From: a virus
Taxonomy: Duplodnaviria > Heunggongvirae > Uroviricota > Caudoviricetes
Reading direction: 5' to 3' (one strand)
Length of the DNA: 4,513 nt
Virus record (IMG/VR): IMGVR_UViG_2537561712_000015
Location: 1 to 4,513 of that record
This document shows, piece after piece, positions 1-721 of the stretch. The translations under genes were made by a program, and so were the position numbers. The first letter of the stretch is position 1. Each line of letters begins with the position of its first letter. The notes under the pieces are model-generated. The model did no database searches. It was not told the DNA's origin and saw only the letters and a list, made by a program, of their open reading frames with translations.

Positions 1-620
1 ATATCCCGGTGCTTGTTCAGCTCCCGCAGCGCGGCGCAGACTCGCTCCCACTTCTGAACATCACTTTTCGCCCTGCGCAGCGCCAGGTTTGCCCTGCGCA
101 GGGACGGAAAAATCAGCTCATCTGCTTGCGTTTCGGTAAACGATGGCAACGGCTGCACAATGTCCGCCACAGTTTCTGTTTTAATTTCTTCCTGTGTTGC
201 GGCTTCCCGGACTGGTAACGCAGCACCTGCTGGCTGAGGAAAGGCCTTACCATCACTTTCCGTTACCAGCGCGGCTTTCGGCTCTGCTGGTAAATTATCG
301 CCCGGCATGCAGTAACGAAATTTACCGTTCTGATTAACGCGTGCCAGCCGCCCCGTTGCGGTTACCACCGCCAGCGTGGAAGCAACCTTGCGAGTACTGA
401 CGCCGAACTTACCCGCCAGTTCCTCACACGTTTTAGCACCATCCTGACCGATAAACTCAACCATCATGTCTGCGGTAACTTTTGGAGCGACCTCTTCGGT
501 TACCACATCCGGCGCTTCAGGTTGTAGTGCCTGCCCTTCGGTTACCCCGGCTTCACCTTCGACAGCCAGAAACCAGGTGTGACCCGTTTTATCAACAACG
601 CCATTTTTTTGAGTTCCCAC
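1..620 (-). CDS. Partial ORF (runs off window start), C-terminal continuation of a tandem winged-helix protein; -1 frame relative to the upstream 59-aa ORF
   Basis: My translation of the minus strand finds no stop from 629 down to 1 (about 200 codons plus). It begins [14 protein letters not shown] (a wing beta-hairpin) and contains a second HTH-like unit, [53 protein letters not shown]. In-frame starts are only GTG at 620 or ATG at 467, neither with a Shine-Dalgarno. Not in the ORF track because it has no stop inside the window. Confidence 0.6.
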
Positions 621-721
621 AGTTCGTTAAGAACTTCTTCACGGCTGATATCAAGCCGCGCCGCCAGTTCAACAGAATTGGCTTTTCCCATCGCTTTCAG
701 TGCATGCAATACAGTTTCCAT
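542..721 (-). CDS. Small winged-helix-like ORF (59 aa), probably the N-terminal part of a longer protein split by a frameshift at the A7 run 604-610
   Basis: ATG at 721 preceded by GAGGT at 9-nt spacing, 25 nt after the DnaC-like stop. Product [39 protein letters not shown]... looks like helices 1-3 of a winged helix, then a featureless tail to TAA at 542-544. Just under the 60-aa ORF-track cut-off. Confidence 0.55.

Follow-up and report, generated by a model that had tools for sequence, protein, structure and literature searches.

By its gene content the window (the whole 4,513-nucleotide stretch of DNA that was analysed) is assigned to the immunity and early-right (replication) region of a Rac-like lambdoid prophage. 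The following genes accompany the locus of interest:

4145-4297, plus strand: DUF1391 ORF
3211-3870, plus strand: cI-like repressor of the LexA family, with HTH_3 and Peptidase_S24 domains
3140-2901, minus strand: P22-Cro-like gene
2904-2479, minus strand: YdaT-like gene
2471-1494, minus strand: O-like initiator gene with an HTH_36 domain
747..1487, minus strand: DnaC/IstB-like helicase-loader gene (IstB_IS21/DnaC-like), directly upstream of the broken gene

The broken gene belongs to the ydaW family. The order of the loader gene and the ydaW-family gene is kept in E. coli 20AR0300, EDL933, Sakai and the Rac prophage of K-12. The features of the broken gene are these:

732..735, minus strand: Shine-Dalgarno sequence GAGG of ATG 721, duplex energy -7.2 kcal/mol
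542..721, minus strand: truncated 59-aa ORF, of which residues 1-39 correspond to helices 1-3 of the first winged helix
604..610, minus strand: A7 homopolymer (T7 on the plus strand), site of a 1-nt deletion relative to intact A8 alleles
605..611, minus strand: frame-0 heptamer C-AAA-AAA (CTC AAA AAA ATG), read from the sequence
1..626, minus strand: remainder of the ydaW-family gene in the shifted frame, with the wing of the first winged helix, a low-confidence linker, the second winged helix and the DUF1627 region
567..605, minus strand: predicted beta-hairpin wing of the first winged helix (strands 43-46 and 49-52 in the model), in the shifted frame only
309..473, minus strand: predicted second winged-helix unit (residues 84-138 of the corrected protein, AlphaFold2 model)
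256..305, minus strand: patch of 7 SNPs, the sole difference between the window's gene and the A7 allele of O157:H7

The run at 604-610 is the only in-gene run of 7 nt or more in the window, and the minus strand reads CTC AAA AAA ATG GCG there. The ORF that starts at ATG 721 continues after residue 39 with 20 out-of-frame residues to a stop at 542. Its product is identical to UniProt entry Q8X456_ECO57 and is present on at least 1000 contigs. The shifted frame has a stop at 627-629, is open from 626 through position 1 and leaves the window at the left edge about 16 codons before the natural stop of the gene. With the run taken as A8, the window contains 240 codons of the gene (...ELWELKKNGVVDK...). 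A -1 slip on C-AAA-AAA, or one A inserted in the mRNA, gives ...ELKKNGVV..., the sequence of the wild-type protein. The corrected (A8) reading matches phrog_630 over residues 1-240 of 253 (E 5e-127) and Pfam family PF07789 (DUF1627) over residues 91-240 with 315.4 bits, the cut-off being 28.1 bits. On these matches the gene is classified in the DUF1627/YdaW family (PF07789, phrog_630). The window copy lacks the uninterrupted ORF of about 250 aa that is expected of family members; it is a disrupted member, a pseudogene by annotation, and not an intact one. The earlier note had proposed that an A7 run divides the gene, that the -1 frame is open to position 1 and that an A8 reading restores a coherent protein, and all three proposals are borne out by the two ORFs and by the two family matches.

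An AlphaFold2 model was made of an intact homologue (P0004), not of the window's own copy. The first winged-helix unit in the model has the order H2-11/E13-15/H16-23/H27-39/E43-46/E49-52 with pLDDT 76-84, and the second unit has the order H84-94/H99-106/H110-122/E127-131/E134-138 with pLDDT of about 71-74. The model also has a linker of low confidence and, at the C-terminus, a long helix (197-255). The frame break, after residue 39, falls at the end of helix 3 (the recognition helix) and before the wing of the first winged helix. The model agrees with the tandem winged-helix fold that had been predicted from the sequence, and also with the prediction that the missing wing is encoded in the -1 frame and followed by a second HTH-like unit. 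The tandem fold is further supported by Foldseek, where the top PDB matches are proteins with multiple winged helices (ESCRT-II, the SelB C-terminal domain, ScpB and TFIIIC; E about 1e-3). The low TM-scores of these matches reflect the uncertain position of the two domains with respect to each other. Residues 87-133 give weak Pfam matches to HTH_PafC and FeoC, and a sequence search for relatives with solved structures found nothing below E 0.05. The product of about 256 aa with two modelled winged-helix domains is presumably DNA-binding.

The family is counted among the uncharacterised predicted transcription factors of E. coli, and its length varies between strains (PMC9308461). In a plasmid-library screen ydaW was among the prophage-gene 'blockers' of RcaT, the toxin of retron-Sen2 (bioRxiv 10.1101/2020.06.22.160242), and DUF1627 genes are frequent neighbours of prophage PasA/PasC sRNA loci. 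A literature search on ECs2274, Q8X456 and WP_000450876 found no papers.

The search for homologous proteins gave more than 2000, of which the best 120 are single ORFs or partial entries. The lengths in these 120 are mostly 251-256 aa; the rest are partial apart from one 277-aa variant and two longer fusions with DUF977, the family of the downstream neighbour gene. The two fusions, P0052 (403 aa) and P0056 (372 aa), are ENA-derived and have DUF1627 and DUF977 in one ORF, which suggests further alterations of frame or stop codon at the gene's 3' end. The nearest intact gene is that of E. coli 20AR0300 (WP_021523363.1, 256 aa). It differs at the site only by having A8, and its alignment with the window has a single gap, located within the run. 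The split of the gene is not due to chance, because the intact 256-aa relative differs here only by the extra A. Intact homologues have at the site A8 (KKN), AAAAGAAAT (KRN) or, in K-12 ydaW, AAAAAGGCT. Among 100 fetched loci AAAAGAAAT (Lys-Arg-Asn) is about as common as A8, and AAAAGAAAAGG, AAAGAAAAT and CTGAAAAAGGCT are also found; 49 of the 100 site matches in this sample are without an uninterrupted A7 or A8 run. Relatives from E. coli and E. albertii show the AAAAGAAAT, AAAAGAAAAGG and AAAGAAAAT forms, K-12 ydaW shows CTGAAAAAGGCT, and each of these forms lies in a single ORF. The alignment of homologues suggested in the earlier note, which asked whether they are single ORFs with A8 or with another codon choice, is answered in the affirmative by the best 120 proteins and the 100 loci. 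A two-ORF arrangement with A7 was found in none of the diverged homologues examined, which are all single ORFs. A copy with 84% identity is found in the Actinobacillus phage vB_Apl-pPE4 (PP818812.1, 10072-10778), and Actinobacillus pleuropneumoniae is an unexpected host for so near a relative of an E. coli-type gene.

The frameshift is already known in O157:H7, where RefSeq marks the gene as frameshifted. The EDL933 copy has A7 and is labelled 'DUF1627 domain-containing protein, frameshifted' by PGAP/RefSeq (EDL933_RS12290). In Sakai the A7 copy lies in prophage Sp12 and is annotated only as the downstream fragment ECs_2274. The O157:H7 strains LSU61 and PV15-279 carry an identical O157 haplotype but with A8, and have the intact protein WP_000450876.1 and the same neighbouring proteins. 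The deletion therefore arose on that haplotype.

Exact matches of a 72-mer flanking the site were counted in 5,426 complete E. coli genomes, giving 287 with A7, 164 with A8, one with A9 and none with A6. The corresponding figures for IMG/VR contigs are 16 with A7, 110 with A8 and none with A9 or A6. The A7 genomes include Sakai and several EDL933 assemblies, and all labelled A7 genomes in the sampled rows are O157:H7. The only exact A9 is found in E. coli MBT-5 (NZ_CP058682.2, 2508602-2508675), in one of the three DUF1627 copies of that strain. When the run is corrected, the full-length copies form 69 nucleotide haplotypes. A7 occurs on nine of these, of which three also occur with A8. The nine A7 haplotypes represent at least five lineages; two of the lineages are 15 nt apart and all other pairs 70-211 nt, and every A7 lineage is within 0-5 nt of an A8 haplotype. 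With A7 present in at least five divergent lineages, each close to A8, the same deletion has therefore happened several times or was under-called. Some of the A7 calls outside O157 could be homopolymer under-calls in draft assemblies, but the neighbouring genes are intact in the non-O157 A7 contigs, which argues against generally noisy assemblies. The pattern identifies the A8 tract as a recurrent mutational hot spot.

In all complete A7 copies from clean assemblies the downstream frame has no interruption before the natural stop. This fits recent inactivation and also fits continued use through slippage, and dN/dS on the A7 backgrounds has 0-5 substitutions per lineage, too few to inform. The A8 found in ATCC 43894 (NZ_CP194055.1, EDL933-derived) was considered as a case of reversion or switching and rejected, as the O-like, DnaC-like and DUF1627 genes of this error-prone assembly are all flagged 'frameshifted'. 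A second frameshift in L014 was likewise discounted as a sign of decay, that assembly having several frameshifted neighbours as in ATCC 43894.

The prophage around the window's gene is a mosaic. Positions 1-2909 are 98.9% identical to the replication module of Sp12 of O157:H7, with zero gaps, and 2910-4513, with the cro, cI and DUF1391 genes, form an immunity region that differs from that of Sp12. As judged by these comparisons, an O157-type A7 allele has been joined to another immunity region, with the junction between 1-2909 and 2910-4513. The DUF1627 pseudogene of Sp12 has the same A7 allele, the same 59-aa product and the same flanking module of ydaT, O-like and DnaC-like genes. It differs from the window by the patch of 7 SNPs at 256-305, and Sp12 has a RelE/RelB-flanked region where the window has the cI-like and P22-Cro-like genes. 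The 5' 320 nt of the window's gene are identical to the O157:H7 A7 allele. The 7 SNPs, all within 50 nt in the linker after the second winged helix, match the alleles of strain 20AR0300 and E. albertii, and the patch appears to be the result of recombination resembling gene conversion. The whole window is carried by no complete E. coli genome in the searched collection. The exact 219-aa repressor of the window is on record in the O157:H7 strains EC4115 and TW14588, and the closest IMG/VR contig, L113, has the same gene haplotype as the window but differs in other parts.

Compared with YdaW of the Rac prophage of K-12, the product has 60% identity over the first 154 residues. Both genes lie directly after a DnaC-like ydaV-type gene and encode an N-terminal winged helix. 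K-12 ydaW differs in having CTG AAA AAG GCT at the site, with no long run, whereas the window copy has the A7 frameshift, and it is shorter (186 aa) with another C-terminus. The likeness to lambda Ren is one of position alone: a small gene of winged-helix-like type follows immediately on the loader gene (P in lambda). The phrog_142 'Ren-like' profile gives a weak match (E 5e-6) with no stretch passing alone; homology to lambda Ren was rejected, since BLASTP found nothing and hhalign gave a probability of 0.7%.

The reading that best accounts for the locus is a genuine and already annotated 1-nt homopolymer deletion in a prophage ydaW-family gene, common to the main O157:H7 lineage and located at a recurrent hot spot, and the sequences compared make it very probable. 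Homopolymer indels are the commonest route to gene inactivation. An A8 tract (AAA AAA AAT, Lys-Lys-Asn) would have become one A shorter through strand slippage during replication. Translation initiated at ATG 721 would then go out of frame past Lys39 and meet a stop at codon 60, and standard decoding would yield only a wingless fragment of 59 aa. The allele is the same as that of Sp12 in the main E. coli O157:H7 lineage, a frameshifted pseudogene according to RefSeq. A minority of wild-type protein is perhaps still made, either by -1 slippage on C-AAA-AAA or by transcriptional insertion of an A, and premature termination may reduce the expression of the downstream DUF977 and DUF551 genes.

An error or a mutation had been favoured over slippage in the earlier note; of these two the mutation is far better supported. 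If the true sequence were A8, the window would have under-called the homopolymer. Indels of this kind are a typical assembly error, and the A8 in ATCC 43894 among 'frameshifted' neighbours indicates that the site does get mis-called. A sequencing or assembly error is nevertheless improbable, because the A7 allele, which the 5' 320 nt of the gene match, is found in 287 complete genomes and because the window has no other indel relative to EDL933 over 2909 nt; all its other genes are intact. Another view, that the A8 tract is a contingency locus switching a phase-variable prophage gene ON and OFF, draws on the three otherwise identical haplotypes that occur as both A7 and A8, on the at least five independent changes and on the existence of one A9 variant. 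The tract is however short and absent from about half of the homologues, A7 within O157:H7 looks clonally fixed and not flickering, and phase variation through 8-nt runs is not known in mismatch-repair-proficient E. coli. Phase variation is accordingly given a slight chance. That two genuine genes are present, one for a small HTH protein and one for a DUF1627 protein with its own start, is hardly credible. Gene callers do report an ORF of 171-222 aa in the downstream part (for example Sakai ECs_2274), and PHROGs has families of fragment size, phrog_16668 with a profile length of 59 and phrog_11856 with one of 160. The candidate starts in the second frame lack a Shine-Dalgarno sequence, however; none was found at GTG 620, GTG 506 or ATG 467/464 (-0.4 to -1.4 kcal/mol, against -7.2 kcal/mol at the real start). 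Moreover, the break separates helix 3 of a winged helix from its wing, and each diverged homologue examined, K-12 ydaW included, has one ORF here.

Recoding has to be weighed in two forms, one in which A7 is maintained by selection for a set ratio of the 59-aa fragment to the full-length protein, and one in which the allele is merely leaky. The heptamer C-AAA-AAA had been dismissed earlier as not canonical. It does depart from X-XXY-YYZ in its first position, but the dismissal was too strong, as the heptamer is shift-prone in E. coli. On C-AAA-AAA in frame 0, -1 frameshifting amounted to 25-60% in E. coli BL21(DE3) under T7 overexpression, on evidence from protein sequencing and without transcript heterogeneity (Belfield et al., PMC1851650). 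The site in that study, attB1 of the Gateway vector pDEST17, has the identical heptamer in the identical frame (NNC AAA AAA), and a -1 shift restores the downstream frame there too; it differs in having A6 followed by G and in being overexpressed in BL21(DE3), whereas the window's A7 precedes a T and lies in an early prophage transcript (PMC1851650). Transcriptional +1 insertions in E. coli cluster in A/T runs and climb exponentially with run length (PMC5574713), which also favours recoding. In genes with transcriptional slippage, such as the transposases of IS elements with A9 and mxiE of Shigella, an A run likewise lies at the overlap of two frames, which are fused by an added A in the mRNA. 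The known genes of this kind use runs of 9 or more, with a two-frame layout conserved among non-identical homologues (PMC1088944), whereas the window has a run of 7 in an unconserved layout and intact frames have A8 or a run broken by G.

In favour of selected recoding it can further be said that the shifted product would equal the wild-type protein exactly, that A7 is present in at least five lineages with the downstream frame always intact and that A7 is far commoner than A9 or A6. Against it, the split is not conserved, the A7 alleles are 0-5 nt from A8 and about half of the family has a G in the run. Most of the surplus of A7 is due to a single clone that has been sequenced intensively, O157:H7. 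A stimulatory fold in the 106 nt around and after the run is no better than in shuffled sequence (z = 0.02), no hairpin 3-50 nt downstream of the run is better than in shuffles, none is found at a spacing of 5-9 nt, and an upstream Shine-Dalgarno-like stimulator is lacking, the anti-SD duplex of -4.2 kcal/mol being equal to the gene-wide median. Programmed or selected recoding is therefore very improbable, and the break is not regarded as a programmed recoding site. By analogy with attB1 the A7 allele may still be leaky, though nothing suggests programming or selection for leakiness. A leaky pseudogene, in which -1 slippage of Lys-tRNA on C-AAA-AAA-A together with an occasional transcriptional A would give wild-type protein at a useful level, is unlikely but has more than a token chance. 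Such reading would explain the recurrence of A7 in at least five lineages, its persistence in O157:H7, the undamaged downstream frame and the near absence of A9 and A6. The tract would then set the dose of a prophage regulator like a dial and would not act as an off switch, a natural frameshift mutation would be buffered by a shift-prone heptamer in the prophage of a major pathogen, and caution would be called for in scoring such genes as null.

The annotation of the gene is inconsistent between records. It appears as a 59-aa 'DNA-binding protein', as a 171-222-aa 'hypothetical protein' or as a pseudogene, and these three forms should be treated as a single disrupted ydaW-family gene. Strains like LSU61 and PV15-279 can be told apart from the main O157:H7 lineage by the A8/A7 state, which could serve as a lineage marker.

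Some further elements were found in the window. An Rfam scan gave only a sub-threshold speF-leader hit at 466-571, which was dismissed as chance (19 bits, the gathering score being 37; E 0.087). The stop of the cro-like gene and the start of the YdaT-like gene overlap in ATGA at 2901-2904, as expected of translationally coupled early genes. The O-like gene contains five overlapping copies of a repeat with a 15-nt period (TCAAC.GTTGA / TTTGACGGG) at 2032-2121 and two copies of CTGACGGATCRGG at 1964-1997. Lambda O has ori iterons within it, and by this analogy the repeats look like the origin of replication of the prophage. Operator-like palindromes (ATCTAAGTATTTTTAGATT and relatives) are situated between the divergent cro and cI-like genes at 3140-3206, and two related 18-mers are found at 3916-3966, just past the terminator-like hairpin of cI (about 3886-3916). 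The palindromes and the 18-mers probably represent the OR- and OL-type operators that belong to this type of immunity.
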